A stretch of DNA of 35,367 nt from Burkholderiaceae bacterium (GCA_039925165.1 JBDSZM010000035.1:1-35367), one strand, 5' to 3'; positions 14,281 to 31,223 are shown, counted from the first letter of the stretch. Numbers and translations: made by a program. The notes: a model not told the origin generated them from the letters alone.

Positions 14281-14305
14281 ACTCCATCGAACAAGGACTG
14301 TTGAA

Positions 14306-16686: not shown

Positions 16687-17034
16687 GCCTGCGAACAACG
16701 CCCAGCCGCGCAACCGCGTCCGCTCGTCGCGTCGCGCTCCAGGTGAGCGTCGTCACGCTGACCGCCCGCTCTCCACAACCCCTCGGTTCTTGCCCGCCGC
16801 CATGGCCCGTCGCGCCGCCGCGCAGGCAGCGATTTGGACGTGCGGCGCGAACGCGCCGACGCCTTTGCTTCAGATCACGAGCACGCGCGGACTGTTGCTC
16901 CGCCATCAGCGCGCTCATCTCCGACACGATGCACGAGGCAATCGCGTTGCCATCCCAGGCGCTGCCGTCGGCATCGCGCGTCACTGGCACCACGGCCGGC
17001 CGCGCGGCGATCATTTCGCCCACGCACGGACGAG

Positions 17035-17300
17035 CACGGCTTTCACGCCACCGGCCCATGCGGCGCGATTCGAAAGTACCCTGCCAGGCCGCGGCACGCC
17101 GAGTGCGGGGCAAGCTGCGCGCATCACCGCCCAGTGCGACTGAGCTGGGTCAAGCTGCTCAGGCGGGTGTTCGATCTCGACCTTGAACACTGCCTGGCCT
17201 GCGGGGGCCAGCTGAAGATCATCGCCGCGATCCAGGAACAGCCGGTGATCGCGAAAATCCTCACCCACCTGGGGCTGCAGGCCAGTGCACCGCCGCGTGC
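17035..17300 (+). pseudogene. C-terminal remnant of an IS91/ISCR-family rolling-circle transposase
   Basis: In the frame of ORF 16834, the stretch ..CAHHRPVRLSWVKLLRRVFDLDLEHCLACGGQLKIIAAIQEQPVIAKILTHLGLQASAPPRA matches the conserved C-terminus of IS91-family transposases as I remember it (..RLSWAKLLKRVF.ID.E.CP.CGG.LKIIAAI.E.PVI.KILTHLGL..). The core is 17122-17300. Everything N-terminal of it, more than 300 aa, is absent. Confidence 0.7.
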
Positions 17301-17556
17301 GCTCCCGTGGGTCGCAGCTGCAAGCACCCTGACCGTCTCCTTCCATCGCCATTCAGGCGGCCCTGAGCGGGGGCTACGGGGACCGGCTGCGCCCGGGCTT
17401 CGCGGAGCCGAGGATCGGAGCCTCACTGCACGGGAAAACCCGGAGGCGGCCGCTGCGAACGACGCGCTTCGGGGCTGCGGTCGATCCTCAACAGGCCGCT
17501 GTCGACCCCAAGGGCTGCCCGATGGGAGTCTTGCAGGGGACCCTGGGGAGAAAAAA

Positions 17557-17579
17557 GTGCGTTTGAACTTCCTATCCCC
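17557..17579 (+). mobile_element. oriIS-like terminus of the IS91/ISCR remnant
   Basis: gtgcgtttgaacttcctatcccc lies about 260 bp downstream of the transposase remnant. It is preceded by an A6 run and a small hairpin (caggg-ga-ccctg). It resembles the ISCR/IS91 oriIS consensus I recall (..GCGTTTGAACTTCCTATAC..). Confidence 0.55.
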
Positions 17580-17734
17580 GCGTGGCAATGTCGGTGATGG
17601 GGTTCATTGGCCGCACCCCCGCGAACTTGACCGTGGCGCACAGGCTGCACCTCAGATCTCCACTGACCAACGACCCGGGGAATTCGCCCAGGCGATCAGG
17701 TTTGCATCTGCAGGTCGCACGCACGCGTCACGAC

Positions 17735-18913
17735 TCAGCCCACTTCAAACACCACCTCGTCGGCAATCCAGGCAGGCAGTCCCCGTTCCAGCCGACTTCG
17801 TTCACCCACCGCCTGACCGGCCAGCACGAAGCCAATCGGTGCCTGCGGGTCGCCATACAGGGCCTTCAGTCGCTCGGGACCTGCCTCGAACGTCCAGCCT
17901 CCAGCGTGCTCGCACTGCGGTGGCGCGATGGCCAGCGGCAGTGAGGCAGTCTTGACGATGATCGGCATGGCCGGATAGACCACCGGCGTCGGGTTGCCGG
18001 TCAACGTCTGCGCGAGGGCGCGCGCCGACTTCATGATGGGCATGACATAGGGAAGGATCCGCCCCTGCAACTCGGCGCAATCGCCGATGGCATGGATGTG
18101 CGGGTCCGATGTCTGCATCAGGCGATCGACGACGATGCCGCTGGCTGTGCGCAGGCCGGCGTCATGCGCCATTGCAATGCGGGGTCGCAGACCAATCGCG
18201 CCCAGGACCACATCGACTGACACCGGCAGACCCTGCGCGGCCTGGATTTGGAAGCCGTCGCCAACGCGGTCGATGCGCTGCACGGCGTTGCCGAGCTGCC
18301 AGTGCACCCCGGACCGCGCCATGGCGTCGCGCAGCGCTTCGCTCACCAGCGGGGGCAGCAGCCTGGACAGTGGTAACGGGGCGAGGTCGAATACCGTGAC
18401 CTCGAAGCCCGCGCGCGACAGATCGTCGGCGATCTCGCAACCGATCAGGCCGGCGCCGAGGATTGCCACCCGCTTGCGCGACAGCAGCGCTTGACGCAGC
18501 CGCTCGAAGTCGGTCAGGTCGTTGAGCTGCAGCAGGTCCTCCGGCAACAGGCCGGGAATGCGCGGCTGCACCGGGTCGGCGCCGACGGCCAGAACCAGCT
18601 TGCGGTACCTGACTTCTCGTTCGCCGATGCGCAGGATGCAGCGCGCCGGGTCGATGGCGTCCACGCCGGTGCTGACCGACACGGTGGACGTCAGTTGGGC
18701 GGCCATGGCCGACGCACTGTGCATCACCAGTTGAGCGGCCGAGCGCCCACCCGAGATCGCTGTCGACAGCATCGGCTTCGAATAGAAGGCGCCGTCGTCG
18801 CGGGTCACGATCAGCAACGGGACGGCCTTGTCGAGCTTGCGGATCTCGCGCGCCAGCGTGTACGCCGCCATGCCGCTGCCGACGACGACGATCGGGTCGA
18901 CTTCGGCGGTCAT
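17735..18913 (-). CDS. FAD-dependent ferredoxin-NAD(P)+ reductase component (pyridine nucleotide-disulfide oxidoreductase, rubredoxin-reductase-like)
   Basis: 392 aa from the internal ATG 18913 (MTAEVDPIVVVGSGMAAYTLAREIR). A second dinucleotide fold VAILGAGLIGCEIADDL, and AIGDCAE. ATGA overlap with the ferredoxin stop. Confidence 0.9.
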   Translation of the reverse strand: MTAEVDPIVVVGSGMAAYTLAREIRKLDKAVPLLIVTRDDGAFYSKPMLSTAISGGRSAAQLVMHSASAMAAQLTSTVSVSTGVDAIDPARCILRIGEREVRYRKLVLAVGADPVQPRIPGLLPEDLLQLNDLTDFERLRQALLSRKRVAILGAGLIGCEIADDLSRAGFEVTVFDLAPLPLSRLLPPLVSEALRDAMARSGVHWQLGNAVQRIDRVGDGFQIQAAQGLPVSVDVVLGAIGLRPRIAMAHDAGLRTASGIVVDRLMQTSDPHIHAIGDCAELQGRILPYVMPIMKSARALAQTLTGNPTPVVYPAMPIIVKTASLPLAIAPPQCEHAGGWTFEAGPERLKALYGDPQAPIGFVLAGQAVGERSRLERGLPAWIADEVVFEVG

Positions 18914-19239
18914 GTGGCGGTTCCGCCGCCGTGCAGCAGCACCCGGCCAGCCTGGATCTGGACCCGAAAGGTGCGCAGGTCCACCACGCACGGCGCGCCT
19001 GTCGCCTTCCCGGTGCGGATCGCGAAGCGGCCCATGTGCATGGCGCACTCGATCTCTTCACCGCAGATCGATCCTTCGGACAGCGAGCCGCTGCCGTGGG
19101 TGCAGGCGTCGCTGGTTGCGAACAGGCTGCCGTCCAGGTTGTACAGGGCCACTGCGGAATCGCCGGCGAAAACCTGCACCACGCAGCCTGACGCAAAGTC
19201 GTCGACGGCGCCGACGTCGTAGGGTTTGGAATCGTCCAT
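18910..19239 (-). CDS. Rieske-type [2Fe-2S] ferredoxin component
   Basis: About 109 aa. CTHGSGSLSEG ... CAMHMGRF is a CxH..CxxH Rieske ligand pattern. ATG 19239 lies 1 nt after the beta-subunit stop. The ORF-track start 19248 is a GTG alternative. Confidence 0.88.
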   Translation of the reverse strand: MDDSKPYDVGAVDDFASGCVVQVFAGDSAVALYNLDGSLFATSDACTHGSGSLSEGSICGEEIECAMHMGRFAIRTGKATGAPCVVDLRTFRVQIQAGRVLLHGGGTAT

Positions 19240-19240
19240 G

Positions 19241-19750
19241 TCAGACACAGTAGAAATCGATCATGCCGGGGATGTGGTCGTTGAGCAGTTCACAGCGCCG
19301 TGCCGCGATGCGCCATGGCGACTGCGCATCGGCACGCACGAAGCGGTGCAGCGTTCGCCCGAAGTGCGCATACGAACGGCGGGCGCGCAGATCGTGGATG
19401 TCGCAGTGCAGCGCGGCATGGCAGTGAAAGGCATCAGGCCCGTCGGGCGTGGCGCTGACGTTGGTGTAGGCGTGCAGCGTCCTGCGCGCGATGCTCGACG
19501 CCAGCGAGCGCCCCGATCGCGCACGGGCGACGCGCTCTTCCAGGCCTGACCGGCTCTCGTAGTAGATGAGCGACAGCTCTCGATCGGGGTCGCGCGTGGT
19601 TTCGAAGTCGCTGGTCCACGCCGGCACCCAGTAGACGACGGACGGATGCAGCATCGCCAGCCAGTCGTCCCAGCGCCGCTCGTCGAGTGCGCGCGCTTCT
19701 GCGTACAGCAGTTGCGCCGCTTCGGCGTGGCGCGTTGCGGTGTCGTTCAT
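19241..19750 (-). CDS. aromatic ring-hydroxylating dioxygenase beta (small) subunit
   Basis: 169 aa, the C-terminal part of spurious ORF 19241..20869. It starts MNDTATRHAEAAQLLYAEARALDERRWDDWLAML.., an NTF2/SnoaL-like small-subunit pattern. ATGA overlap with the alpha stop. Confidence 0.88.
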   Translation of the reverse strand: MNDTATRHAEAAQLLYAEARALDERRWDDWLAMLHPSVVYWVPAWTSDFETTRDPDRELSLIYYESRSGLEERVARARSGRSLASSIARRTLHAYTNVSATPDGPDAFHCHAALHCDIHDLRARRSYAHFGRTLHRFVRADAQSPWRIAARRCELLNDHIPGMIDFYCV

Positions 19751-21108
19751 GCCGCATCGCCCGCCGCTGCGCCGGCGCCCTTGCGCAGCAGCCGCTGCCA
19801 CTCGCGGTAACCGGTGTGCAGGCAGGTCTCGTCGCCCTGACTGTAGGAGCCCTGGACAGCATCCACGGCCTGCACGCCCAGCGCCTGCGCCTGCGGGCTG
19901 GTGGTGTTGCCGCGCGCTGTCATGCCACGCGAGTAACCTTGCTGCCATTCGATCACATGCGCCGCGTGGCCACGCTGACAGGCTTCGTAGACGGCCGTGT
20001 CGTCGGGGGTCGCCATTCCGCTCGGGTTGTAGAAGTCCTCGTACTGGCGGATGCGGCGACGACGTTGCTCCAGCGGCTCGCCCCGTGGCCCGATGCACCA
20101 GGTCAGGACCTCGGTGCGGTCGACCGCCACGGGACGCAGCACGCGCAGTTGCAGCGACGCGTTTTCCACGACCTGCAGATTCGGGAACACCACCAGGTTG
20201 CGCACCTTCAACATCCACTGTGCAGCCGTCTCGCCGACACGGCTTTGGATCTCGTCGAACGCGCAGGCAAGAGGTCGTTCCGACCCCTTGGGGTTGTCGC
20301 CCCAGTAAGCGACGTGGCCGTGACGGAAGCTCAGCGTGCCGCGGCCCGACTGCTGCTGGGACGCCAGGTCTTCGTAGATGGAGCCTGGCACTTCGGCCGC
20401 TCCTGCGGCCCGGCGCTCGCCGCGCTTGTGCAGCACGTCGATATACGACGGGTGGGTGGAAGTGAAGTGGTACAGGTCCAGCGCATTTTCGAGCTGCATC
20501 TTCCAGTTGCCAGCGTATTCGTAGCTGACGGCACCGGGGATCACCTCGATCCCGTCGGGTCCCTGGTCGACGACCAGGTCGAGGAATCGGGCGGCGCCGT
20601 CCAGGTGCTCCTCGAGCGCCGGCACGTCGGGCGCAAGGCTTGCGAACAGAAAGCCGCGGTAATTGCCGAACCGGGCCACCGGGACCAGGTCGTGGTTGTC
20701 GCAATCGAAGGCCGGCGCGTAACTGCCTGCGTCCCGGTCCTTGATATCGACGCACTTGCCACCGGAGTCGTAGACCCAGCCGTGGTACGGGCAGGCGTGG
20801 TAGCGCCGGTTGCCCTGCGTGGCATTGAACACGGTGGCGCCGCGGTGGCGGCAGCTGTTGAGGAAGCAATGCAGCGCACCCGTTCGATCACGCGAGACGA
20901 CGACCGGTGCGCGGCCCACGAAAGCAGTGAAAAAATCGTTGGGCTTGGGCGCCTGACAAGCCAGGCCGACGAAGACCCAGCTGCCTTCGAAGATGTGCTG
21001 CATCTCTGCGTCAAACACCGCCGGGTCGCGCATCGCATCGCGGTGCACGCTGAAGATGCCTTCGTCGACGCGGTCGTCCACGAGGTCTGCGATGCGGGTG
21101 GTCGTCAT
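19747..21108 (-). CDS. Rieske non-haem-iron ring-hydroxylating oxygenase alpha subunit, benzoate/anthranilate 1,2-dioxygenase-like (BenA/AntA family)
   Basis: 453 aa. Rieske motif CRHRGATV..(17 aa)..CPYHGWVY. Catalytic-domain segment YAGNWKMQLENALDLYHFTSTHPSY. Followed by a beta subunit. Confidence 0.92.
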   Translation of the reverse strand: MTTTRIADLVDDRVDEGIFSVHRDAMRDPAVFDAEMQHIFEGSWVFVGLACQAPKPNDFFTAFVGRAPVVVSRDRTGALHCFLNSCRHRGATVFNATQGNRRYHACPYHGWVYDSGGKCVDIKDRDAGSYAPAFDCDNHDLVPVARFGNYRGFLFASLAPDVPALEEHLDGAARFLDLVVDQGPDGIEVIPGAVSYEYAGNWKMQLENALDLYHFTSTHPSYIDVLHKRGERRAAGAAEVPGSIYEDLASQQQSGRGTLSFRHGHVAYWGDNPKGSERPLACAFDEIQSRVGETAAQWMLKVRNLVVFPNLQVVENASLQLRVLRPVAVDRTEVLTWCIGPRGEPLEQRRRRIRQYEDFYNPSGMATPDDTAVYEACQRGHAAHVIEWQQGYSRGMTARGNTTSPQAQALGVQAVDAVQGSYSQGDETCLHTGYREWQRLLRKGAGAAAGDAA

Positions 21109-21121
21109 GGCAGTGCCCCGC

Positions 21122-22096
21122 TCAGTTCATCGCGATGCCGGAATTCTTGGCGAAGCTTGTCCAGCGTTTCGTTTCCTGCTCGATGTAGGCAGCGAAGTCC
21201 TTGGGTGTACCGGCCTGCAGCACAACGCCGTTCTTCATGAACTGCTCGCGCAGTTCGGGCGCTTCCGTGATGGCCCGCACTTCCTTGGCCACGCGTTCGA
21301 CGATGGCCGGCGGCGTTCCGGCCGGCGCCAGGATGCCCCACCAGGCCGTCACGTCGAATCCGGGAAAACCGGATTCGGCCATCGTCGGCACGTCAGGCAA
21401 GGCCGGAAAGCGTTGCAGCGTCGTCACGGCCAGCAGCTTGAGCTTGCCCGAGGCCACATGGGGCAAAGACGACGTGCCGCCGTCGAACATCATCTGCACG
21501 CGCCCGGCCAGCAGGTCGGTCAGTGCCGGTGCGCTGCCCTTGTACGGCACATGGGCGAGATCGAGCTTGGCCTCCTGCTTGAACAACTCGGCCGCGATGT
21601 GGGTCGAACTGCCGGGGCCGATCGACGCGAAGCTGAGCTTGCCTGGGTGCGCCTTGACGTAGGCCACGAGTTCCTGCACCGACTTGGCGGGCACCTCGGC
21701 CGGCGTCACCAGCAGCAGCGGTGCATGGAACAGCCGTGACACCGGCGCCAGGTCACGCACGGGGTCGTAGCGCATCGGGATGCCGCTGGCAGGGTTGAGG
21801 CTGAGGCTCGTCACGCTGCCGAGCAGCAGCGTGTAGCCGTCCGGGGTTGCCTTGGCCACGTTCTCGGCCCCGATCATCTGTCGCCCGCCGGCCTTGTTGT
21901 CGATGATGACGACTTGTCCCAGGCGCTGTGACAGCCGCTCGCCGACGACGCGGCTCAAGGTATCGGCAACGCCACCCGGTGGGTAGGGAACCACCAGCCT
22001 GATCGGCTTGTCGGGATAGTCCGCATGAGCAGCCGTGCCGCAGAGCAGGAGCGTGGCAGATGTCAGCGCAACGCGCAGGAAATTCAGCAAGTGCAT
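21122..22096 (-). CDS. Bug-family (TctC-like) periplasmic solute-binding protein
   Basis: 324 aa. Sec-type signal MHLLNFLRVALTSATLLLCGTAAHA, then YPDKPIRLVVPYPPGG, DNKAGGRQMIGA and YKGSAPALTDLLAGRVQMMFD. Confidence 0.92.
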   Translation of the reverse strand: MHLLNFLRVALTSATLLLCGTAAHADYPDKPIRLVVPYPPGGVADTLSRVVGERLSQRLGQVVIIDNKAGGRQMIGAENVAKATPDGYTLLLGSVTSLSLNPASGIPMRYDPVRDLAPVSRLFHAPLLLVTPAEVPAKSVQELVAYVKAHPGKLSFASIGPGSSTHIAAELFKQEAKLDLAHVPYKGSAPALTDLLAGRVQMMFDGGTSSLPHVASGKLKLLAVTTLQRFPALPDVPTMAESGFPGFDVTAWWGILAPAGTPPAIVERVAKEVRAITEAPELREQFMKNGVVLQAGTPKDFAAYIEQETKRWTSFAKNSGIAMN

Positions 22097-22146
22097 GTCG
22101 ATTCCTTGTGGTTCATAAGATGCCGGTGCAGCCCACCGGGCGGGGG

Positions 22147-22923
22147 TCAGGTGCGGTAATCGGCGCCGGTGCGGGCCAGCAGACGCAGCAGGGCGGGCCA
22201 GTCGCGGTCCTCGACCGGCGTGCGGCCGGGGTTGCTGAATTGCGCTGCAACCTTGCGGGCGACCGCCTCAGGTGCTTCGACCATGTCGCCCATGGCCTGG
22301 GCGTCGGTCTGGATCTGGCAGGCCAGTTCCAGGAAGTACATGCGCTCGAAGGCTTCCCGCACCGTGCGGCCGACGGTGAGCAGACCGTGGTGTCGCAGGA
22401 TCATGGCGCGGTGCGCACCCAGGTCGGCAACCAGCCGCGCGCGCTCGTCCAGGTCGAGCGCGACACCTTCGTAGTCGTGGTACGCCAGTGCGCCGTGGAA
22501 GCGCATTGCATGCTGGCTGATCGGGCGCAGCCCGCCGCGCTGCGCTGCCACAGCAATGCCGGCGCGGGTGTGGGTGTGCATGACGCAGCCGGCATCGTCC
22601 AGTGCGCCATGGATTGCGCTGTGGATGACGAAACCGGCCCGGTTGATGCCCAGCCCGGTGGCGTCTTGAAGCACCTGCCCCTCCAGATCGACCTTGACCA
22701 GCAATGACGCCCGCACTTCGTCGAACAGCGTGCCGTAAGGATTGAGCAGCAGATGTTCGGTGCCGGGAACCCGAGCCGAGATGTGCGTGTAGATCTGGTC
22801 GCTCATCCGGTAGTGGGCGGCAAGCCGGTAGCAGGCCGCCAGTTGCACGCGGGCCTGCCATTCGACAGAAGTGACCGTTCCCTCCAGCGTGACGGTGCTG
22901 AAGTCTTGGGGCTGGGCGATCAT
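22147..22923 (-). CDS. class II aldolase/adducin N-terminal domain family protein (aldolase or non-oxidative decarboxylase)
   Basis: 258 aa, the C-terminal part of spurious ORF 22147..23625, starting MIAQPQDF. Metal-ligand His pattern HSAIHGA..GCVMHTHT and MILRHHGLLTVGRTVREAF, typical of the fuculose-phosphate-aldolase fold. Confidence 0.85.
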   Translation of the reverse strand: MIAQPQDFSTVTLEGTVTSVEWQARVQLAACYRLAAHYRMSDQIYTHISARVPGTEHLLLNPYGTLFDEVRASLLVKVDLEGQVLQDATGLGINRAGFVIHSAIHGALDDAGCVMHTHTRAGIAVAAQRGGLRPISQHAMRFHGALAYHDYEGVALDLDERARLVADLGAHRAMILRHHGLLTVGRTVREAFERMYFLELACQIQTDAQAMGDMVEAPEAVARKVAAQFSNPGRTPVEDRDWPALLRLLARTGADYRT

Positions 22924-23948
22924 GGCTGCTGGCCCTCGGCCCACGCAGCATCTGCCGCTGCGGCGCGCAGCACGATCTTGCCGAAGTGGGCGCCGCTCTC
23001 CATCAGGCGGTGCGCGTCGGCCGCGGCGGCCAACGGCAGCACGCGTTCGACCTGGGGCTTGCAAAGACCTTGGCGCAACAGCGGCCACACCTGCGCACGC
23101 AAGTCGGCGGCGATGGCGGCCTTGTGTGCGCGGCTGCACGGTCGCAGCGTGCTGCCGGTGATGGTGGCACGCTTGCGCAGGATCGGCAGCACGTCGATTT
23201 CGGCGCGTGCGCCGCCCATGAAGGCGATCAGCGCGATGCGTCCGTCGAGTGCCAGGGCCTCCAGGTCGCGCGCGATGTACGGGCCCGCCACCATGTCGTT
23301 CACAACGTCGACACCACGGCCACCGGTGATGTCCATGGCGCGAGCGACGAAGTCCTCGGTACGGTAGTCGATGGCGTGGTGGGCGCCGATGGCAAGGCAT
23401 CGCGTCGCCTTGTCCTGCGACCCTGCCGTCGCGATGACGGTGGCGCCCATGGCCCGTGCGAGCTGCACGGCCGCGTTGCCGACACCGCCCGACCCGCCAT
23501 GCACCAAGACGGTTTCCGTGGCGCGCAACCGGGCACGCCGGAAGACGTTGTCCCACACCGTGAACAGCGCCTCGGGCAGGCAGGCGGCGGCCTCCAGCGA
23601 CCAGCCGTCGGGCACCGGCAGGCAATGTGCAGCCGGGGCCACGCAGTATTCGGCGTAGGCGCCGCCGGGGGTCAGTGCGCAGACCAGGTCGCCGGGCTGC
23701 CAGGTGCCCACATCGGCGCCGACTGCGACGACCCGACCCGCCACTTCCAGGCCGAGCACCGGCGATGCGTCAGCGGGCGGCAGGTAGCGGCCGATGCGCT
23801 GGGCGCAGTCGGGCCGGTTCACGCCGGCATAGGCCACTTCGATCAGGACTTCATCAGCCGCGGGCGTGGGCCTGGCGGCGCGCATGGCGCGCAGCACCTC
23901 GGGGCCACCGCCCTGGCCGTGGTCGATATAGAACATGTCGGACACCAC
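22920..23948 (-). CDS. NAD(P)H:quinone oxidoreductase, PIG3/zeta-crystallin type medium-chain dehydrogenase/reductase
   Basis: 342 aa. GGPEVL, EVAYAGVNRPD, PVLGLEVAGRVVAVG, cofactor loop VLVHGGSGGVGNAAVQLA, and C-terminal GKIVL. GTG 23948 has a GAGGA RBS about 9 nt upstream; ATG 23936 is the alternative start. Confidence 0.88.
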   Translation of the reverse strand: MVSDMFYIDHGQGGGPEVLRAMRAARPTPAADEVLIEVAYAGVNRPDCAQRIGRYLPPADASPVLGLEVAGRVVAVGADVGTWQPGDLVCALTPGGAYAEYCVAPAAHCLPVPDGWSLEAAACLPEALFTVWDNVFRRARLRATETVLVHGGSGGVGNAAVQLARAMGATVIATAGSQDKATRCLAIGAHHAIDYRTEDFVARAMDITGGRGVDVVNDMVAGPYIARDLEALALDGRIALIAFMGGARAEIDVLPILRKRATITGSTLRPCSRAHKAAIAADLRAQVWPLLRQGLCKPQVERVLPLAAAADAHRLMESGAHFGKIVLRAAAADAAWAEGQQP

Positions 23949-23960
23949 CGGCTGTTTTCC

Positions 23961-24974
23961 TCAGCGTGGCCGCGCCAGCGCGGAGGCCGCGCGGGCGATG
24001 CGGTCGGCATTCGGGATGACCGCTTCCTGCAGATGCGGTGCGGACGGCATCCGCAGGTCGGGCAGCCCGAGCCGGCCCACGGGGGCAGCCAGCCTGCCGA
24101 AGCATTCCTGCTGCACGCGCGCAGCGATCTCGGCGCCGAAGCCGCCGGTGACATTGGCTTCGTGCACCACCAGCAGGCGCCCGGTCTTGCGCACGCTGGT
24201 GTAGAGCGTGTCCCAGTCGAAGGGCGCAATCCAGCGGGCGTCCAGCACCTCGACGTCGACGCCGGATTCGTCCTTCAGTCGAGCGGCCGCTTCCAGCACG
24301 CGCAGCAGCATCGCGCCCCAGGTCACGATCGTCAGGTCCGACCCCGCACGCACGATTCGGGCGCCTAGGGCGGGCTGGATCGCGCCGTCGATGCGCACCG
24401 GCTCTGCCGCGCCGTGGTACAGGCCGCGGTTCTCGATGACAAGCGTCGGGTCGTCGCAGCGCACTGCGGCCAGCAGCATGTCGTAGGCGTCCTGAGCCGT
24501 GGTCGGAATGCCGACCCGCAGCCCCGGCACGTGCGCGTACAGCGCCTCAAGGTTCTGCGAGTGCTGCGCGCACGAGCCGGGCAAGGCGCCCTGCTGCGTG
24601 CGGATCGTCAGCGGCGCACCCAGGCGCCCGGCGGAGACGTAACGCACGTTGGCGGCCTGGTTGACGATCTGGTCCATCGCCACCAGGCTGAAGTCGATCC
24701 ACATGATCTCGACGATCGGCCGCAGGCCGCACATGGCAGCGCCGACGGCGGCACCCAGCATCGCGGTTTCGCTGATCGGCGTGTCGAAGACGCGCTGCGC
24801 GCCGAAGTCACGCTGCAGGTCCTTGGTGACACCGAACACGCCGCCCGGTGCGGCGAGGTCTTCGCCGTAGAGAAGGGTCTTAGGGTCTTCAGCAAGCGCG
24901 CGGCGCAGCGCCGCGTTGACGGCCTTGGCATAGCTCATCTCGACCGTGCTCACGGCGGTGTTCTCGTCACGCAT
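23961..24974 (-). CDS. 2-oxoacid/acetoin dehydrogenase E1 component beta subunit (transketolase-like)
   Basis: 337 aa. MSYAKAVNAALRRALAEDP..LYGEDL, RVFDTPISETAMLGAAVGAAMCGLRPIVEIM, and the C-terminal transketolase domain. 8-nt overlap with the E1 alpha stop; alternative start at 24938. Confidence 0.9.
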   Translation of the reverse strand: MRDENTAVSTVEMSYAKAVNAALRRALAEDPKTLLYGEDLAAPGGVFGVTKDLQRDFGAQRVFDTPISETAMLGAAVGAAMCGLRPIVEIMWIDFSLVAMDQIVNQAANVRYVSAGRLGAPLTIRTQQGALPGSCAQHSQNLEALYAHVPGLRVGIPTTAQDAYDMLLAAVRCDDPTLVIENRGLYHGAAEPVRIDGAIQPALGARIVRAGSDLTIVTWGAMLLRVLEAAARLKDESGVDVEVLDARWIAPFDWDTLYTSVRKTGRLLVVHEANVTGGFGAEIAARVQQECFGRLAAPVGRLGLPDLRMPSAPHLQEAVIPNADRIARAASALARPR

Positions 24975-25947
24975 ACAGGTGCTCCATCACGTGCTTGGGA
25001 TCGGCAAGGGGTGCAGCAAGTGCACGTTGCGTCGCCGTTTCGATCGCACCGCGGGCTTCGGCTTCGGCGCTGCTGAGCCGCGCAGCGTCTACGCCGGATG
25101 CGGCCAGGCGTTCGGCCAGACGGACGATCGGCTCGCGCCCTTTGGCTTCGGTCAACTCGCCGCGTGGGCGGTAGCTCTGCATGTCGCCGTAGTAGTGGCC
25201 CACCAGGCGCTGGGTGGTCATCTCGATCAGCGCTGGGCCCTCACCACGGCGCGCTGCGGCCGCGTGGTAGGCCACGCAGTCGCGCACGGCGTGGATGTCG
25301 TTGCCGTCGATGCGCACACCCGGCATGCCGTAGGCGGCGGCGCGCTTGTACAGGTCGGGATCGCAGACCATGTCGGCGATCGGCGTCAGCTCGGAATAGG
25401 TGTTGTTCTCGCAGACGAACAGCACCGGCAGCTTGCGGTAGGCGGCGAAATTCAGAGCTTCGGCCACGGCGCCTTGGTTCATGGCGCCGTCGCCGAAGGC
25501 GGTCAGCGCGATGCTGCCGTCGCCAGCCAGCTGGCTGGCCAGCGCGGCACCGCAGGCGATCGGCGCACCGGCGCCGACGATCGAGTTCTCGCCATAGAAG
25601 CCCCAGTCAGGCGCGCTGAAATAGGCAGAACCGCCGCGGCCCCTGCACACACCGCTTTCGCGGCCCAGCAGCTCGGCCATTACGCCTTCGGGCGGCACGC
25701 CGCAGGCCAAGGCCCAGCCGTGGCCCCGGTAGGTGGAAAAGACACGGTCCTGCGGCTGCAGCGCCTCGCACGCGCCGACGTAGATCGCCTCCTGCCCGTT
25801 GCACAGGTGGATCGAGCCCTGGATCGTCTGCGCCTTGCGCAGTTCGGTGATCTTTTCTTCCAGCAGGCGGATGCGGTGCATGCGCCCGAGCAGCAGCAGC
25901 GCGTGCTCGATGTCGGCGGGCGCCAGGGGTGGAGTCGTCATGTTCAT
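24967..25947 (-). CDS. thiamine-diphosphate-dependent 2-oxoacid/acetoin dehydrogenase E1 component alpha subunit
   Basis: About 326 aa. TPP motif GDGAMNQGAVAEALNFAAYRKLPVLFVCENN. ATG 25947 shares one base with the TGA of the upstream aldolase (TGATG); ATG 25941 is an alternative. Confidence 0.9.
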   Translation of the reverse strand: MNMTTPPLAPADIEHALLLLGRMHRIRLLEEKITELRKAQTIQGSIHLCNGQEAIYVGACEALQPQDRVFSTYRGHGWALACGVPPEGVMAELLGRESGVCRGRGGSAYFSAPDWGFYGENSIVGAGAPIACGAALASQLAGDGSIALTAFGDGAMNQGAVAEALNFAAYRKLPVLFVCENNTYSELTPIADMVCDPDLYKRAAAYGMPGVRIDGNDIHAVRDCVAYHAAAARRGEGPALIEMTTQRLVGHYYGDMQSYRPRGELTEAKGREPIVRLAERLAASGVDAARLSSAEAEARGAIETATQRALAAPLADPKHVMEHLYA

Positions 25948-26759
25948 CAGGGGGTAGGTGCTTTCTGTGAAACAGGGGATGTGGCCGGGTTCGCACGGCA
26001 CCTGGTCGCGAGCGTGTCGGCGGCACGGACCAGCAGGCCCAGGTCGGACCCGAGCGCCAGCACGCTGGCACCGGCCGCGGCATACGTGCCCGCGTCCGCT
26101 TCGCTGCAGAGCACGCCCGCCGCCTTGCCTGCGCGGCGGATGCGCCGCAGAGCGTCCTTCAGCAGGCCGACGACCTGCGGGTGCGCCGGCTGTCCGAGGT
26201 GGCCCAGGTCTGCGGCAAGGTCGTTCGGACCCAGGAAGACCGCATCGACGCCGTCGACCGCGGCGATTTCGTCAACGCTGTCCAAGCCTGCGCGCGACTC
26301 CACCTGAATGAGCACGCTGACACGTTCGATGGTCTGTTGCAGCTGGCCTGGATGGCGGCCGTAGTCGGTGGCACGCACGCTGCCGGCCATGCCGCGTCGC
26401 CCTTCGGGGGGGAAGCGGGTGTAGCTGACGGCCGTGCGGGCCTGCTCGGCACTGTCGACGTTCGGCACCATCAGCCCGGTGACGCCCAGATCCAGGTACA
26501 GCTTGAAGGCGGCCAGGCTGATCTCCGGCACGCGCACGATGGCCTCGGTGCTGCTGCCGGCCAGCGCCACCAGCTGCGCATGCAGCAGCGGCAACGAGCC
26601 CGGCGTGTGCTCGGCGTCGAAGATCAGGAAGTCGAAGCCGCTCGGCCGCAGCGCTTCCACGATCTGCAGGCTGTACGAACAGCAGAACAGACCCCATTGC
26701 GGGGTGTTCGCCAGCAGCCGTGCCTTGAAGCCCGAGGGGTGCATCAACGTCAATGTCAT
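25947..26759 (-). CDS. HpcH/HpaI-family 2-keto-3-deoxy-acid (pyruvate) aldolase
   Basis: About 270 aa. FKARLLANTPQWGLF.., GFDFLIFDAEHTPG, ..RVPE.., VESRAGLDSVDEIAAVDGVDAVFLGPNDLAADLG. ATG 26759 lies 4 nt after the upstream stop. Confidence 0.88.
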   Translation of the reverse strand: MTLTLMHPSGFKARLLANTPQWGLFCCSYSLQIVEALRPSGFDFLIFDAEHTPGSLPLLHAQLVALAGSSTEAIVRVPEISLAAFKLYLDLGVTGLMVPNVDSAEQARTAVSYTRFPPEGRRGMAGSVRATDYGRHPGQLQQTIERVSVLIQVESRAGLDSVDEIAAVDGVDAVFLGPNDLAADLGHLGQPAHPQVVGLLKDALRRIRRAGKAAGVLCSEADAGTYAAAGASVLALGSDLGLLVRAADTLATRCRANPATSPVSQKAPTP

Positions 26760-26763
26760 GGCG

Positions 26764-28083
26764 TCACTTCTGCCCGACATAACCTGCGGCGTCTCCAAAG
26801 CGTTCGACCATCACGTCGGCCAGCTTCGTGTCTCCGGCAGCGACCCAGCCGCCCGAACGCAGCGCATAGCGCTCAGGGTGTTCGGCGCCCAGTGGCGCGG
26901 TGCCGTCGCGTTCCAGCGCCCGGGCGCAACCCAGCAGCAACTGCCGTGTCTTGACGACACCGATGTCGGTGGCGAAAAGGTGCTCGCGGCTGCGGTCGAC
27001 GATGGGACCCTGTCCGTCCTGGACGGCTGCGTCCTGCTCCGACACCCCATGGATGCCGGTAAAGCTGCTGTGCTTCTGCACCGTTCGATCGAGCCCGTAT
27101 TCGTTGCCTTTCGTGCGCAGCGGGACGTAGTGTTCGTCGACCTCGGCGTGCACGGTATGGCCGTGGCGGCAGGCTTCGCGCTCGGCTTCCGTCAGCGGCC
27201 TGTCGGGGTTCCAGGTGTAGGTGTAGATCCAGCAGTTCTCGTCGCTGAAGGGCACCCAGGTCTGGCCGTGGTAGTTCTCACCGGGGAAGGCGCTGGGCAC
27301 CAGTGCGTGGTTGGGCATCAGGAACTGCGCAATGCGCCAGTAGCGCTCTTCGTCGTCGGCGCGGCGCGCGCCGCCGATCGTCAGCCCCACGTCGGTGGCA
27401 TTTACCTCGAAACGCGGCATGGGGTCGTCGCGCACCCAGCGGATGCGGTCGTTGCGTTGGCCCTGTGCGCCGATCGCGGCATGGCTGAGCAGCTTCAATG
27501 CGGCTTCGCTGTCCTGCTCCAGCACCATGTGCAGGAACGAGAAATGCGCCGTGTCGATGGCGCCTTCCACGCATTGCATCCAGTTGCAGTCCTGCCACTT
27601 TTTGGACACGTAGCGGTGCGACTCCGGCACCTGTGCGAACTCCATCTGCGGCAGTTCCCGCACCTGGTCGGCCGGCCCCATCCAGGCCCACACGATGCCG
27701 CCCCATTCGCGCGTCGGGTAGGCCTTGATGCGCATGCGGTCCTTGTTGGTGCCCGCCGGCGCGATTGGAATGTCCACGCAATGCCCGTTGACGTCGAACT
27801 TCAGCCCGTGAAAGACGCAGCGCAAGCCGCATTGTTCGTTGCGGCCCAGGTAGAGATCTGCGCCGCGGTGCGGACACACCGGGTCGACCAGGCCCACACG
27901 GCCGTCGGTGTCGCGGAACGCCAGCAGCTTTTCACCCAGCAGCTGCAAGCGCTTGGGCGGGCCGTCCGGCTCGGCCACTTCGGCCGACAGCAACGCGGGC
28001 ATCCAGTAGCAGCGGAATAGCTTGCCCATCGGCGTGTGTTCGCCGGTCCGGGTCAGCGCTTCGTTGTCTTCGCGGCTCAGCAT
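26764..28083 (-). CDS. Rieske [2Fe-2S] oxygenase, phthalate-dioxygenase family (alpha-only type)
   Basis: 439 aa. N-terminus LTRTGEHTPMGKLFRCYWMPALLSAEV, Rieske motif CPHRGADLYLGRNEQCGLRCVFHGLKFD, NWMQCVEGAIDTAHFSFLH, and C-terminal GVSEQDAAVQDGQGPIVDRSREHL. No adjacent beta subunit. Confidence 0.9.
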   Translation of the reverse strand: MLSREDNEALTRTGEHTPMGKLFRCYWMPALLSAEVAEPDGPPKRLQLLGEKLLAFRDTDGRVGLVDPVCPHRGADLYLGRNEQCGLRCVFHGLKFDVNGHCVDIPIAPAGTNKDRMRIKAYPTREWGGIVWAWMGPADQVRELPQMEFAQVPESHRYVSKKWQDCNWMQCVEGAIDTAHFSFLHMVLEQDSEAALKLLSHAAIGAQGQRNDRIRWVRDDPMPRFEVNATDVGLTIGGARRADDEERYWRIAQFLMPNHALVPSAFPGENYHGQTWVPFSDENCWIYTYTWNPDRPLTEAEREACRHGHTVHAEVDEHYVPLRTKGNEYGLDRTVQKHSSFTGIHGVSEQDAAVQDGQGPIVDRSREHLFATDIGVVKTRQLLLGCARALERDGTAPLGAEHPERYALRSGGWVAAGDTKLADVMVERFGDAAGYVGQK

Positions 28084-28264
28084 GAAATTCTCATTGGCTT
28101 GTGTCCTTCACGACGAGGCGCGTTGCACAGAGTGGTAGCCGTGCCCGATTCCGGGTTGGGCCCATGCGCCTGGTTCAAACCGAAGGATCGGCCAACACCC
28201 GCTCGGCGCGAAGCGGCGGGTAGGATGTGCAGAAATATGTTCGACTATGCAGAATCGGATCGCC
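28084..28264. promoter_or_regulatory. divergent control region between the oxygenase operon and the IclR gene, with a candidate IclR operator
   Basis: Direct repeat TGCAGAA at 28228-28234 and 28248-28254, 20 bp apart, flanking atatgttcgacta. The TGTTCGA core recalls PcaR/PcaU-type IclR boxes as I remember them. The second repeat overlaps the first ATG (28247) of the IclR ORF. Confidence 0.4.
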
Positions 28265-29071
28265 ATGCCTGACCACCACGCGTTGCACGAAGCCAGCCCA
28301 GACAGCCAGAGCAACGACCGCCAGTTCGCAACCACGCTGGCCCGCGGGCTGAATATTCTTCGGTGCTTCACGCCGGACGAGCCGACGCTGGCCAACGGCG
28401 AACTGGCCGCACTGACCGGCTTGTCGAAGGCGACGATTTCGCGCTTCACGTACACATTGACGATGCTGGGCTACCTGAAGCTGGAACCGCGCACACGGCG
28501 CTACCGACTGGGCTCGGCGGTGCTGTCGCTCGGCTACCCGATGCTGGCGACGATCGGCGCCCGGCAGGCCGCCCGGCCCTTGATGAGCGACCTTGCGGAC
28601 TATGCGCAGGGCTCCGTGTCCCTGGGAATCCGGGACCGTTTGGACATCGTGTACATCGAAACCAGCCGCAGCCGCTTCGTGTTTTCCTCACGCATGGCCG
28701 ACATCGGCATGTCCCATCCGATTATTGCTTCGGCGATCGGGCGGGCCTATCTGTGCGCCTGCACGCCGGAAGAACAGCGCGCTCTGCTGAACGAAATTCG
28801 CGTCAAGACACCCGAACAGTGGGCCCGCCATGCACATGCCGCACAACAGAGCCTGGCGTCTTTCGCCGAACTGCGCTTTTGTGTGTCCTACGGCGACTTG
28901 CGTCGGGAGACCCATGCAGTGGCAGTGCCTCTGCGTCGGTCTTCGAATGCCGAAATCGTCGTGGTCAACTGCGTGGTCCAGTCATTCCAGATGAAACCGG
29001 GGCAACTAGTGGGGGATCTCGGCCCGCGCCTGGCGGCGATGGCTCGAACCCTGGAATACGGCTCGACATGA
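28247..29071 (+). CDS. IclR-family transcriptional regulator
   Basis: 274 aa. TTLARGLNILRCF..ELAALTGLSKATISRFTYTLTMLGYL (wHTH), then an IclR effector domain. Alternative start at ATG 28265. Confidence 0.92.
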   Translation: MQNRIAMPDHHALHEASPDSQSNDRQFATTLARGLNILRCFTPDEPTLANGELAALTGLSKATISRFTYTLTMLGYLKLEPRTRRYRLGSAVLSLGYPMLATIGARQAARPLMSDLADYAQGSVSLGIRDRLDIVYIETSRSRFVFSSRMADIGMSHPIIASAIGRAYLCACTPEEQRALLNEIRVKTPEQWARHAHAAQQSLASFAELRFCVSYGDLRRETHAVAVPLRRSSNAEIVVVNCVVQSFQMKPGQLVGDLGPRLAAMARTLEYGST

Positions 29072-29236
29072 ACGCGCGATGCAGCCCCCGGCTTTCTGGC
29101 GAATGGCATTGAACCCAGTCGCAGCTGCCGGCAGTTCCTACAGAGGCGTTGCGACAGAGCTGCCAGGTGGGAGCAGCGTGGCGGCACGCGCCACAAACAA
29201 GCCAGGCTGAGAGCTGTCAGCGCAGCGTCGAACACC

Positions 29237-29482
29237 TTGCGCTGGGTCGCTCGGCGCCGATGGGCACAGGTGGCCATCGTCTGGGAGGACGGCATCGGCA
29301 GCGTCGGCACGCTGCGCTACGGCGAATTGCAAACGCAAGCCGACCGCCTGAACCACGCACTGCGCCGGCTGGGTTTGCAGCGCGGGCAGCGGGTGGCGGT
29401 GGTGATGCCGCAGCGCCCGGAGACGGCCATCGCCCACATGGCGCTGTACCAGTTGGGCGCAGTGGCGATACCGCTGTCGATT
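29237..29482 (+). pseudogene. N-terminal fragment of an AMP-dependent acyl-CoA synthetase/ligase
   Basis: ..VAIVWEDGIGSVGTLRYGELQTQADRLNHALRRLGLQRGQRVAVVMPQRPETAIAHMALYQLGAVAIPLS is a typical adenylate-forming-enzyme N-terminus. Similarity stops abruptly at about 29482, and the AMP-binding core is absent. Confidence 0.65.
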
Positions 29483-29770
29483 CGCCCACCTTGGTCGCCA
29501 CGTGCCGCTTGGGCGCGGCCGGGCGCGGGGCGGCGGCTTCACGGTCCTGGGCTTCATGAAAGTTGGCTTAGCTGCAGTGGCCTTGGTGGCCGCTGCCCTG
29601 CGCCGGGGCGCCACTTCCGCCGCCGCCTCGGCCCGCGCCGCCAGCGCCAGCTTGCGCACGCGCCGGATGTCGGCCTCGGTGATGATGCGGTCGGCGCCCG
29701 AGATCGCGGCCTGCTTCATGCCGTGCTTCTTCAGTCCCAGCTGGTAGATCTCGCCCACCTTCTCCCATTG

Positions 29771-31188: not shown

Positions 31189-31223
31189 GTTGTCTCCTGT
31201 TGAATCTAGGGTTGTCGCGGGAA

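Follow-up and report, generated by a model that had tools for sequence, protein, structure and literature searches.

What does an operon do that sets two Rieske oxygenases beside a thiamine-dependent E1 pair and a pyruvate aldolase? In the window, by which we mean the whole 35,367-nt stretch of DNA analysed, the minus strand from 28083 to 17735 carries eleven intact ORFs, each with a near-full-length Pfam profile match (Table 1), as the original prediction had described, and every family call made there was upheld by Pfam/NCBIfam profile matches. Its count of six overlapping junctions held in part: with distances computed from the most parsimonious ATG starts, five overlaps are certain, and the sixth, OxB/Fd, exists only with the GTG start at 19248. 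The remaining gaps do not exceed 50 nt, the largest being AldII/Bug, and a terminator scan returned fewer matches than in shuffled sequences and none at the gene junctions. An ORF at 22268-22951, considered as the class II aldolase, proved to be a wrong-frame, Arg/Pro-rich reading; the true gene is contained in a long ORF, 22147-23625.

Table 1. Features of the locus, with the distance from each operon gene to the next in nucleotides (negative values, overlaps)
Feature	Coordinates	Strand	Profile evidence and remarks	Junction with next gene
IclR-family regulator	28247..29071	+	Pfam HTH_IclR and IclR_C; divergent from operon	
Operator-like double palindrome	28219..28255	.	iclR/Ox1 intergenic; overlaps iclR start codon	
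Ox1, phthalate-family Rieske oxygenase, isophthalate-dioxygenase-like (439 aa)	26764..28083	-	Pfam Rieske and LigXa_C	+4
HpcH/HpaI-family pyruvate aldolase, HpcH (270 aa)	25947..26759	-	Pfam HpcH_HpaI, positions 1-220 of 221	-1 (TGATG)
TPP-dependent E1 alpha subunit (326 aa)	24967..25947	-	Pfam E1_dh	-8
TPP-dependent E1 beta subunit (337 aa)	23961..24974	-	Pfam Transket_pyr and Transketolase_C; 8-nt overlap with E1 alpha	+24
PIG3-type NAD(P)H quinone/enone oxidoreductase, QOR (338 aa)	22920..23936	-	TIGR02824, 438 bits (cut-off of 297 exceeded)	-4 (ATGA); spans module A/B boundary
AldII, class II aldolase/adducin family (258 aa)	22147..22923	-	Pfam Aldolase_II; ATGA-coupled to QOR	+50
Bug/TctC (TTT) periplasmic solute-binding protein (324 aa)	21122..22096	-	Pfam TctC	+13
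OxA, benzoate-group Rieske oxygenase alpha subunit (453 aa)	19747..21108	-	Pfam Rieske and Ring_hydroxyl_A	-4 (ATGA)
OxB, oxygenase beta subunit (169 aa)	19241..19750	-	Pfam Ring_hydroxyl_B; ATGA overlap with OxA	+1, or -8 with GTG start at 19248
Fd, Rieske-type ferredoxin (109 aa)	18910..19239	-	Pfam Rieske	-4
Red, NAD(P)H:ferredoxin/rubredoxin reductase (392 aa)	17735..18913	-	Pfam Pyr_redox_2 and Rbx_binding C-terminal domain	

Gene order is conserved in Comamonadaceae at 47-77% protein identity, including the cultured Hydrogenophaga sp. YM1. The complete order, whose recurrence in other genomes had been proposed as a check, was found with all eleven genes and the IclR gene syntenic in three Comamonadaceae MAG loci (L001-L003), in strain YM1 (L088) and in L092. 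Repetition of the order and of several overlaps in independent genomes at these identities argues that the layout is not due to chance, and the eleven-gene arrangement is a real operon, conserved in Burkholderiales. Comparison of the loci further indicates that it is a fusion of two modules. Module A, the core (IclR, Ox1, HpcH, E1 alpha/beta, QOR and Bug), occurs widely among Comamonadaceae and Alcaligenaceae and stands alone in Pusillimonas-type loci (L089, L173), in Pigmentiphaga humi (L090) and in seven metagenome loci (L095, L096, L098, L101, L102, L105, L106); module B comprises AldII and a BenA/CadA-like alpha/beta oxygenase, OxA and OxB. The single unit originally proposed is thus conserved in its fused form, with the refinement that the modules also occur as two divergent operons and A also by itself. 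All 15 sufficiently long loci have HpcH, E1 alpha and E1 beta together with Ox1, and these three are therefore not passengers. Linkage of the operon genes fades with sequence divergence: OxA relatives of at most 53% identity (80 genomes) lack the other operon genes except the beta subunit and occasional Bug paralogues, and those Ox1 relatives without module A, of about 62% identity or less, lie in a different gene cluster.

Profile searches of the window found neither a cis-diol dehydrogenase, SDR or otherwise, nor a ring-cleavage dioxygenase, E2 or E3, in agreement with the gaps noted at the outset. The claim that no characterised pathway is known to have such a gene combination likewise stood, as a full-text literature search gave nothing relevant on the combination, nor on a precedent for TPP-dependent ring cleavage; two Rieske oxygenases, a stand-alone thiamine enzyme and an aldolase appear not to occur jointly in the described pathways that we found.

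Our preferred reading, to which we give a probability of roughly 0.55, is an IclR-controlled operon, built by module fusion, for catabolism of an aromatic carboxylic acid, probably one with a meta substituent or with more than a single carboxylate; both the substrate and the role of the E1 pair are what we infer. The Bug protein would capture the acid in the periplasm, and electrons would pass from NAD(P)H through the NorW-like reductase and the Rieske ferredoxin to both oxygenases. OxAB may dihydroxylate a precursor, and dehydrogenation by the PIG3 oxidoreductase together with decarboxylation by the metal-dependent AldII would trim it to the acid accepted by Ox1, although we know of no precedent for a PIG3-type reductase as cis-diol dehydrogenase. 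Ox1 would bind this acid through R250 and T178 and dioxygenate it; the E2-less E1 pair would act by itself on an alpha-keto or acyloin intermediate, as a TPP-dependent decarboxylase or lyase, and the HpaI-like aldolase would release pyruvate and an aldehyde. The operon has no gene for ring cleavage, a step that is therefore either encoded elsewhere in the genome or unconventional.

The thiamine enzyme resembles AcoAB and PdhAB in being a TPP E1 of the heterotetramer type, its E1_dh, Transket_pyr and Transketolase_C domains all full-length, and its best solved relative is human PDH E1; unlike them, it scores under the PDH equivalog cut-offs (E1 alpha against PDH_E1_alph_y, 301 bits versus 394) and is flanked, inside an oxygenase operon, by aldolase and reductase genes. 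E1 beta is the operon's most conserved protein (70-78% identical across loci), the 8-nt overlap of the two genes recurs in L001, L004 and L088, and the best 120 relatives listed for E1 alpha, some from cultured Hydrogenophaga, Pusillimonas, Pigmentiphaga and Pollutimonas, have identities of 61% or higher. Neither the operon nor any related locus contains an E2 or E3. Elsewhere, a related E1 alpha/beta pair (61% identical) adjoins a cupin protein and an ABC transporter, again with no E2/E3 called nearby, which indicates that stand-alone E1 pairs exist in this clade; alternatively, the operon's own pair could use a housekeeping E2 as its docking partner. In five sphingomonad loci a different TPP enzyme, an MdlC-like benzoylformate decarboxylase, precedes the OxA-clade gene (48-52% identical), suggesting that a TPP decarboxylase belongs in the pathway. 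The neighbouring aldolase has GarL, HpaI and YfaU as PDB relatives. It shares its fold with HpaI/HpcH of the lower homoprotocatechuate pathway, and HpaI is its nearest equivalog model, but at 234.6 bits against a cut-off of 368.8, and the partner genes HpaD, E, F, G and H are absent.

These same genes invite the reading that the E2-less E1 opens the ring itself, so that a ring-cleavage dioxygenase is unneeded. Ox1 would form an ipso cis-dihydrodiol, which QOR or an SDR would convert to 1-hydroxy-2-oxo-cyclohexadiene-1-carboxylate, an acyloin; E1 would cleave its C1-C2 bond, in the manner of acetoin-cleaving E1 enzymes, to a linear C7 2-oxo acid, and after reduction and hydration the HpaI-like aldolase would yield pyruvate and a C4 aldehyde. 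All core operons lack ring-cleavage dioxygenase and E2/E3, the aldolase has as its closest model HpaI, which acts on a C7 4-hydroxy-2-oxo diacid, and one NAD(P) oxidoreductase (QOR or SDR) lies beside Ox1 in every architecture; the cupin-associated E1 pair points the same way, as does a SnoaL/NTF2-like protein added in A-only operons, whose fold occurs in isomerases and dehydratases of cyclic ketols. However, the route was drawn from chemical reasoning alone, the literature search offered no precedent, and the proposed acyloin is a beta-keto acid that would normally decarboxylate spontaneously to a catechol. In Pigmentiphaga humi, moreover, a LigAB extradiol dioxygenase and a hydrolase adjoin module A, which fits conventional ring cleavage outside the operon. 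We consider ring opening by E1 unlikely.

For the preferred reading, module B would supply the upstream steps. OxA lies far under the equivalog cut-offs of the benzoate group (BenA, 411 bits versus 781; AntA, 322 versus 672), and OxA, OxB, a Rieske ferredoxin and an FAD reductase make up the component set of AndA and of CadABC from pCADAB1. In contrast to BenAB/AntAB, AndA and Cad, the operon has no BenD-type dehydrogenase, and OxA, which also falls far under the AndAc cut-off, shares its locus with a class II aldolase-like protein and module A. Fd has AndAb and HcaC as nearest equivalogs, both under cut-off. Red, predicted simply as an FAD reductase, is a reductase but of a more specific kind, with NorW (NADH:flavorubredoxin reductase) as best NCBIfam match at 324 bits (HcaD, 147; lipoamide dehydrogenase, 78), so that a rubredoxin reductase is the closer description. 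Electron-transfer genes are interchangeable among relatives: A-only operons carry a phthalate-dioxygenase-type reductase, as expected for a phthalate-family oxygenase, and others a rubredoxin with a NorW-like reductase in its place. Some relatives encode an SDR, SnoaL-like protein, rubredoxin or phthalate-dioxygenase-type reductase that the window lacks.

A combination of this kind could also serve dealkylation, with the oxygenases acting as monooxygenases that cleave ethers or O- or N-alkyl groups, as CadAB/TftAB or VanA do, and HpcH, E1 and QOR assimilating the glyoxylate or formaldehyde thus freed, through an aldol addition with pyruvate and subsequent decarboxylation. OxA is 44% identical to the phenoxyacetate-type oxygenase of pCADAB1, which has the same reductase/alpha/beta/Rieske-ferredoxin set, and 41% to annotated BenA; the phthalate family includes many demethylases, and HpcH-family aldolases accept glyoxylate and formaldehyde. 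Yet Ox1 has true ring dioxygenases as its closest kin, four conserved genes for a C1/C2 by-product would be unusual, and the demethylated aromatic product would still require a pathway of its own, all of which makes dealkylation quite improbable.

AldII, the other component of module B, belongs to the adducin-like PRK07044/3ocr clade (348 bits, exceeding the PRK07044 cut-off of 207), with the function-unassigned 3ocr as top PDB match. It carries HxH and RHHG metal motifs as read from the sequence, and the decarboxylases PhtC, NovR and HMPDdc are distant matches only. The Gram-positive phthalate 3,4-dioxygenase pathway (PhtAaAbAcAd-PhtB-PhtC) similarly combines an alpha/beta Rieske dioxygenase, a ferredoxin and a reductase with a class II aldolase-fold protein, the dihydroxyphthalate decarboxylase PhtC. 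The operon differs in lacking PhtB; AldII reaches just 36.6 bits against the PhtC model's cut-off of 200, and the pathway's alpha subunit (9jp5) matches OxA weakly (E 3e-36).

Are the two modules functionally unrelated neighbours fused by chance, with no single substrate for the operon? Many genomes have A without B, QOR closing module A in the A-only operons, and in L085 the AldII-Bug-OxAB genes adjoin IS66 genes with no module A within 10 kb. Against this, the nine loci whose OxA is at least 59% identical (L001-L004, L085, L086, L088, L092, L097) all have module B beside module A or an IclR remnant, in three arrangements: fused, divergent around the same IclR (L086 and L097, where A and B form two operons) and as the IS-flanked remnant of L085. 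By size match alone, the longest contig of a 57%-identical OxA homologue (44,994 bp) has the figure given for E1 alpha and AldII homologues, and that of the L085 OxA (291,485 bp) the figure for an E1 alpha homologue. Within the window, the ATGA coupling of QOR and AldII crosses the module boundary, and one Fd/Red pair is the sole electron supply for both oxygenases. A chance fusion of unrelated modules is accordingly hard to credit.

For the nature of the substrate we turn to Ox1, whose top PDB match is 9ina, the isophthalate dioxygenase IPDO-KF1 of C. testosteroni KF1 (E 8e-107, 44% identity). That this should be its closest solved relative bears out the predicted resemblance to iph/tph operons. 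Ox1 retains the anchor for one carboxylate (R250 and T178, corresponding to R234 and T175 of IPDO), and an aromatic carboxylate as substrate would fit this conserved Arg/Thr pair. The His that holds the second carboxylate in IPDO, H257, is Q274 in Ox1, which makes strict isophthalate specificity unlikely; V178 is F181, the F333 position is Val, and Q274 and F181 are invariant in six orthologues. Like the Comamonas iphACBDR operon, which has an IclR, Bug and oxygenase layout, the locus combines an IclR regulator, a Bug/TTT solute-binding protein and a homotrimer-type phthalate-family oxygenase, but it delivers electrons through a Rieske ferredoxin and NorW-like reductase and adds HpcH, E1 alpha/beta, QOR, AldII and a second oxygenase. 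The Bug protein has among its PDB relatives the terephthalate-binding proteins, BugE, BugD and AdpC, each scoring roughly 200-226 bits. Were this an ordinary operon of iph/tph type for isophthalate or a phthalate isomer, with the additional genes as passengers, the closest solved relative and the shared layout would be accounted for, but such an operon is very unlikely given an identity of only 44%, the substitutions at H257 (essential in IPDO for the second carboxylate and Gln in all orthologues), V178 and F333, the absence from the window of an IphB-type dehydrogenase and IphD-type reductase, and the constant company of HpcH and E1 described above. The substrate may instead be a non-aromatic compound, as the nearest Ox1 paralogue clade (57-62% identical) adjoins a Cys/Met-type PLP enzyme and a GST.

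Regulation under the preferred reading would fall to the divergent IclR gene, which Pfam confirmed where it had been predicted. Its nearest NCBIfam model is the PcaR/PcaU/PobR subfamily (124 bits versus a cut-off of 285), and of the 22 related loci with a module-A-type Ox1, 20 have an orthologue (48-67% identical) transcribed divergently from that gene. The regulator would sit on the double palindrome over its own start codon and be released by a pathway inducer. Read on the minus strand, the window's operator is ATTCTGCATAGTCGAAC (28255-28239) followed by a degenerate second copy, and a tandem pair of RTTC-N9-GAAY units, for example GTTCTGCATAGTCGAACAGTGTTCTGTTAATCCGAAC, is present in 16 of 19 related intergenic regions, making this conserved double palindrome a putative IclR binding site.

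The eleven genes form a Rieske-oxygenase operon, probably for an aromatic acid, with an uncharacterised, widely distributed core. [quoted passage not shown] With ATG starts, the junctions from Ox1 to Red measure +4, -1, -8, +24, -4, +50, +13, -4, +1 and -4 nt, so that none exceeds the anticipated 50 nt; five of the six start/stop overlaps claimed previously are certain, and the sixth exists only if the ferredoxin starts at GTG 19248. An ORF at 22268-22951, entered as the class II aldolase in a mechanical list, is a wrong-frame artefact. A consensus scan of the window (35,367 bp, ~67% G+C) placed no terminator at any gene junction and returned fewer hits than shuffled sequence, and an Rfam scan of the window found no riboswitch or other RNA family.

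Coordinates of features in the window and in related loci
Feature	Sequence	Coordinates	Strand	Basis
Operon of eleven intact genes	Window	28083-17735	-	ORF reading
Ox1	Window	26764-28083	-	
AldII (class II aldolase)	Window	22923-22147	-	ORF reading
Bug	Window	21122-22096	-	
iclR, divergent from the operon	Window	28247-29071	+	Pfam
First palindrome	Window	28255-28239	-	
Acyclic-terpene-utilisation-like set	Window	331-16686	+	
Carboxylase with biotin/lipoyl domain	Window	4965-7103		
Gene-poor gap, thiolase end to reductase end	Window	16686-17735		
Peptide LSWVKLLRRVFDLDLEHCLACGGQLKIIAAIQEQPVIAKILTHLGLQASAPPRA	Window	17140-17301	+ (frame)	tblastn
ORF right after the iclR stop	Window	29072-30136	+	Pfam
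Opposite-strand ORF	Window	29138-30241	-	
GntR/FCD regulator and divergent operon	Window	30205-34497		
Rubredoxin gene	L001	2903-3103		
Rubredoxin gene	L088	7655-7855		
Rubredoxin gene	L089	6724-7014		
TctC/CoA-transferase/DUF35/thiolase operon	L089	1797-5746		
TctC/CoA-transferase/DUF35/thiolase operon	L173	1882-5810		
Tandem Ox1-like pair	L139	8695-13346		
Tandem Ox1-like pair	L148	7340-12014		
E1 alpha/beta pair and its operon	L172	9403-16681		
OxAB relatives and preceding MdlC-like gene	L174	5401-8838		

The divergent regulator predicted for the operon was confirmed as IclR by Pfam; it lies nearest the PcaR/PcaU/PobR subfamily, with a score under that subfamily's cut-off. The iclR-Ox1 intergenic region carries two tandem RTTC-N9-GAAY palindromes in 16 of 19 related loci (e.g. 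GTTCTGCATAGTCGAACAGTGTTCTGTTAATCCGAAC). In the window the first palindrome is intact and contains the iclR start codon, read there as CAT, and the second copy is degenerate. This double palindrome, at 28219-28255, is a putative operator of IclR.

Pfam and NCBIfam confirmed every family assignment made earlier. Ox1 has Rieske and LigXa_C domains (Pfam), and alignment of its sequence to the solved structure 9ina places the Rieske CxH...CxxH ligands at C70/H72/C89/H92 and the mononuclear-iron site at H180/H185. The nearest model to HpcH is HpaI, yet its score against TIGR02311 is 234.6 against a cut-off of 368.8, which leaves HpcH as an HpcH_HpaI Pfam member and not an HpaI equivalog. Similarly, E1 alpha and E1 beta are PDH-like and score under the equivalog cut-offs (301 vs 394 and 302 vs 321, respectively). 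QOR is a PIG3-type quinone oxidoreductase (TIGR02824, 438.3, above the cut-off of 296.8). AldII belongs to the PRK07044 subfamily (348.2, above the cut-off of 207), which carries no assigned reaction; its metal-binding His motifs HTH and RHHG are present in the sequence, and its closest solved structure, 3ocr, is a protein of unknown function. A 65%-identical AldII paralogue in Variovorax sp. YR750 sits beside an amidase and a peptide ABC transporter and was uninformative. Bug is a TctC-type binding protein (Pfam), with a 52-55%-identical counterpart in the operons that have module A alone. OxA and OxB fall in the benzoate group, where OxA scores 411 bits against BenA (cut-off 781), 322 against AntA (cut-off 672) and 130 against AndAc (cut-off 750). 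Fd is a Rieske ferredoxin, and Red, a flavoprotein reductase, has a C-terminal rubredoxin-binding domain (Pfam); among NCBIfam models Red scores best against that of the NADH:flavorubredoxin reductase NorW (324 bits), ahead of HcaD (147) and lipoamide dehydrogenase (78; cut-off 409).

The cis-diol dehydrogenase, ring-cleavage dioxygenase and E2/E3 components originally noted as absent from the operon were not found anywhere in the window; its sole biotin/lipoyl domain belongs to a carboxylase. No rubredoxin was found in the window either, neither the eleven operon proteins nor the flanking ORFs tested matched SDR, PdxA or FNR-plus-Fer2 models, and tblastn of the window with related SDRs returned nothing.

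The closest solved structure to Ox1 is 9ina (E 8e-107; 44% identity across 388 aligned residues), the isophthalate dioxygenase (IPDO) of Comamonas testosteroni KF1. In IPDO, R234 and H257 salt-bridge the two meta carboxylates, T175 donates a hydrogen bond to one carboxylate, and G172, V178, I246, F249, I294 and F333 line the pocket (PMC12445078). Ox1 retains the Arg/Thr anchor as R250 and T178 and differs at V178 (F181) and F333 (V347); unlike isophthalate dioxygenase, it has a Gln (Q274) for H257. Both Q274 and F181 are invariant across six orthologues. The retained R250/T178 together with the pocket changes suggest that the substrate of Ox1 is very probably flat and hydrophobic and is bound through a carboxylate. 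As for isophthalate specificity, its defining feature is the R234/H257 pair, by which Ox1 is predicted to fall outside it. A plasmid search with Ox1 gave a best match of 54%, in Variovorax VAI-C, in an unrelated context.

We compared the operon with related loci (handles L001-L174) and found the gene order conserved elsewhere: all eleven genes and the divergent IclR recur in one Comamonadaceae MAG and two Logan assemblies (L001-L003), in a metagenome contig (L092) and in the complete genome of a cultured strain, Hydrogenophaga sp. YM1 (L088, CP070223.1). Across these full-order loci, protein identity to the window is lowest for OxB and Red (48%) and highest for E1 beta (77%). Other loci hold parts of the set or rearrange it. 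L004 has the first nine operon genes, without ferredoxin and reductase, and L086 and L097 split the same genes into two divergent operons around IclR, one Ox1-HpcH-SDR-E1a-E1b and the other QOR-AldII-Bug-OxA-OxB. These arrangements can be described by a module A (IclR, Ox1, HpcH, E1 alpha/beta, QOR, Bug) and a module B (AldII, OxA, OxB). Module A occurs alone as rubredoxin-Ox1-HpcH-SDR-E1a-E1b-reductase in Pusillimonas sp. TS35 (L089) and L173, as Ox1-HpcH-E1a-E1b-QOR-TctC-SDR adjoining a LigAB-type extradiol dioxygenase in Pigmentiphaga humi, and as Ox1-Bug-HpcH-E1a-E1b-QOR in six metagenome loci; four of the six continue with a SnoaL-like protein, and two with an FNR plus Fer2 reductase of the phthalate-dioxygenase type. 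Another metagenome locus with module A only, L095, reads Ox1-HpcH-E1a-E1b-Bug, with a reductase of that type nearby. In L085 just AldII-Bug-OxA-OxB is present, next to IS66 genes and a fragment of IclR.

The best 120 E1 alpha relatives listed are all at least 61% identical, several of them from cultured Burkholderiales, and every relative at least 66% identical whose context was checked lies in this operon. By contrast with these orthologues, Ox1 relatives at 57-62% identity sit in a different soil cluster, and a genome-collection scan with OxA, which served only as a negative control, listed matches all at most 53% identical and no cluster: among the matches listed, these relatives at 80 genome loci had no operon partners except the beta subunit and occasional Bug paralogues. 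Since module A is found alone and linkage is lost beyond orthologues, the unit under selection is, as judged from these comparisons, predicted to be module A, which module B accompanies as an accessory. In the window the two are present in fused form, and the ATGA overlap of QOR and AldII straddles the module boundary. Module A is present in cultured members of Hydrogenophaga, Pusillimonas, Pigmentiphaga and allied genera that come from soil and activated sludge.

The soil clade of Ox1-like proteins at 57-62% identity is very common (L107-L171) and often encoded as tandem pairs, for example in L139 and L148. In L139, the sole annotated locus, genes for a Cys/Met-metabolism PLP enzyme, a GST, a lactonase and TctA/TctB flank the pair. 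Clusters of this type, too, seem to be uncharacterised, and they are a hint that the substrates of the Ox1 oxygenase subfamily extend beyond aromatic acids.

Among relatives, electrons reach Ox1 by three interchangeable solutions: a classical PDR-type reductase, seen only in relatives with module A alone; a rubredoxin gene directly upstream of Ox1 combined with a NorW-like reductase; and a Rieske ferredoxin with a NorW-like reductase, which is the window's whole set. The Fd/Red pair is thus the predicted sole electron source in the window for both oxygenases. Rubredoxin lies directly 5' of Ox1 in the Comamonadaceae MAG L001, in YM1 and in TS35, and in the same three loci the last gene of the operon encodes a NorW-like rubredoxin reductase; it would be unusual for a Rieske oxygenase to draw its electrons from a rubredoxin chain.

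Several described systems resemble parts of this operon. The expected likeness to the isophthalate and terephthalate (iph/tph) operons of Comamonas held up: the IclR regulator, the Bug/TTT binding protein and the first oxygenase, nearest IPDO, are shared. However, unlike iphACBDR, the window has neither an IphB-type cis-diol dehydrogenase nor an IphD PDR-type reductase. The trio of OxAB, QOR and AldII is like that of the Gram-positive phthalate pathway, but AldII is only remotely related to PhtC, the 3,4-dihydroxyphthalate decarboxylase (NF053537, 36.6 against a cut-off of 200). The four-component second oxygenase is like the And/Cad systems and, unlike BenABC/AntABC, is served by a Rieske ferredoxin and a NorW-like flavoprotein instead of a BenC-type FNR plus plant-ferredoxin reductase; a BenD-type dehydrogenase (SDR), present with BenABC, was not found in the window. 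Unlike a 2-oxoacid or acetoin dehydrogenase complex, the E1 pair has no lipoyl-bearing E2 and no lipoamide dehydrogenase E3 at the locus. By its sequences, therefore, the operon would fall outside IPDO specificity, BenA/AntA, PhtC, HpaI and the 2-oxoacid dehydrogenase complexes. The riboflavin/lumichrome (lum) cluster likewise has an aldolase and a TPP enzyme beside a four-component Rieske dioxygenase, yet was rejected: the TPP enzyme there is made up of two subunits of 20-23 kDa, and the cluster depends on a P450, a xanthine oxidase and an extradiol dioxygenase. The dipicolinate (dip) cluster was rejected on its GntR/DipR regulation and its different organisation, with 12 structural genes in six transcriptional units. 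A full-text literature search for the gene combination or for a precedent of TPP-dependent ring cleavage found nothing relevant. Literature on YM1 describes atenolol and propranolol degradation via an amidohydrolase and TfdA; we found no work there on this cluster and nothing under the genome accession.

What is demonstrated is the set of parts and how it is conserved, and from this a catabolic route for an aromatic carboxylate can be proposed. Bug would take up the aromatic carboxylate; OxAB, QOR and AldII might act as a dioxygenase, dehydrogenase and decarboxylase trio, as in the Gram-positive phthalate pathway; Ox1 would next dioxygenate the acid left by them; the E1 pair would serve as a stand-alone TPP decarboxylase or lyase; and the HpaI-like aldolase should release pyruvate. 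The role proposed for the E1 pair is suggested by the absence of E2/E3 from the related loci, where they were also searched for. In one of these, L172, a single operon joins a 61%-identical E1 alpha/beta pair to a small cupin protein and an ABC transporter of the branched-chain type, with a TetR gene divergent upstream and no E2/E3 called within 10 kb. Independent support for an association of a TPP decarboxylase with the OxAB clade comes from sphingomonad OxAB relatives (48-52% identical), which an MdlC-like benzoylformate decarboxylase precedes in five loci (L174, L015, L021, L022, L041). In L174 a LysR regulator stands over the OxAB relatives, and two NTF2-family genes are close by. Upstream of module A in Alcaligenaceae (L089, L173), a divergent operon encodes TctC, 3-oxoacid CoA-transferase A/B, DUF35 and an SCP-x-type thiolase, which hints at a 3-oxoacid end product and a possible downstream branch.

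There is a modest chance that the core holds new ring-opening chemistry. In the boldest reading, which we put at roughly one chance in eight, Ox1, an NAD(P) oxidoreductase, the E2-less E1 alpha/beta pair and the HpaI-like aldolase would constitute a new mode of aromatic-acid degradation: after Rieske dearomatisation, acyloin cleavage of the oxidised ipso cis-diol by E1 would open the ring without a second dioxygenase, keeping the carboxyl carbon and yielding pyruvate and a C4 aldehyde, with rubredoxin and rubredoxin reductase feeding the oxygenase in some relatives. Such ring opening would be compatible with the genes present and with the preference of HpaI for C7 substrates. As module A is common, assigning its substrate or pathway would allow a catabolic trait that recurs in Burkholderiales to be annotated, and would define what a stand-alone E1-type TPP enzyme and a clade of bacterial adducin-like class II aldolases do; it might also bring to light a ring-opening route that departs from convention, or an unusual way of supplying electrons to a Rieske oxygenase. 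Cultured Hydrogenophaga sp. YM1 carries the full operon, at about 2.399-2.410 Mb of CP070223.1, which makes it directly accessible to experiment.

Directly downstream of the operon, in a gene-poor gap of about 1 kb, a junk-like ORF contains the peptide LSWVKLLRRVFDLDLEHCLACGGQLKIIAAIQEQPVIAKILTHLGLQASAPPRA, which resembles what would remain of the C-terminus of an IS91/ISCR-type transposase. It matches no Pfam model; by tblastn it matched more than 5000 plasmid records, and of the eight matches listed, one lay under a 'transposase' feature and six under none. On the other side, the ORF that follows the iclR stop matches the AMP-binding (acyl-CoA synthetase) model only through residues 58-137, over the model's first 78 positions, and the opposite-strand ORF has no Pfam match; a ligase gene may have been truncated or frameshifted here. 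Beyond it, a GntR/FCD regulator is divergent from an operon for an aldehyde dehydrogenase, a 3-hydroxyisobutyrate-dehydrogenase-like protein and TctC, which could process an aldehyde product; these genes are not conserved beside the operon in relatives. The upstream half of the contig holds an acyclic-terpene-utilisation-like set (carboxyltransferase, biotin carboxylase, AtuA, acyl-CoA dehydrogenases, family III CoA-transferase, enoyl-CoA hydratase, thiolase), interspersed with two more Bug binding proteins and a LysR regulator.
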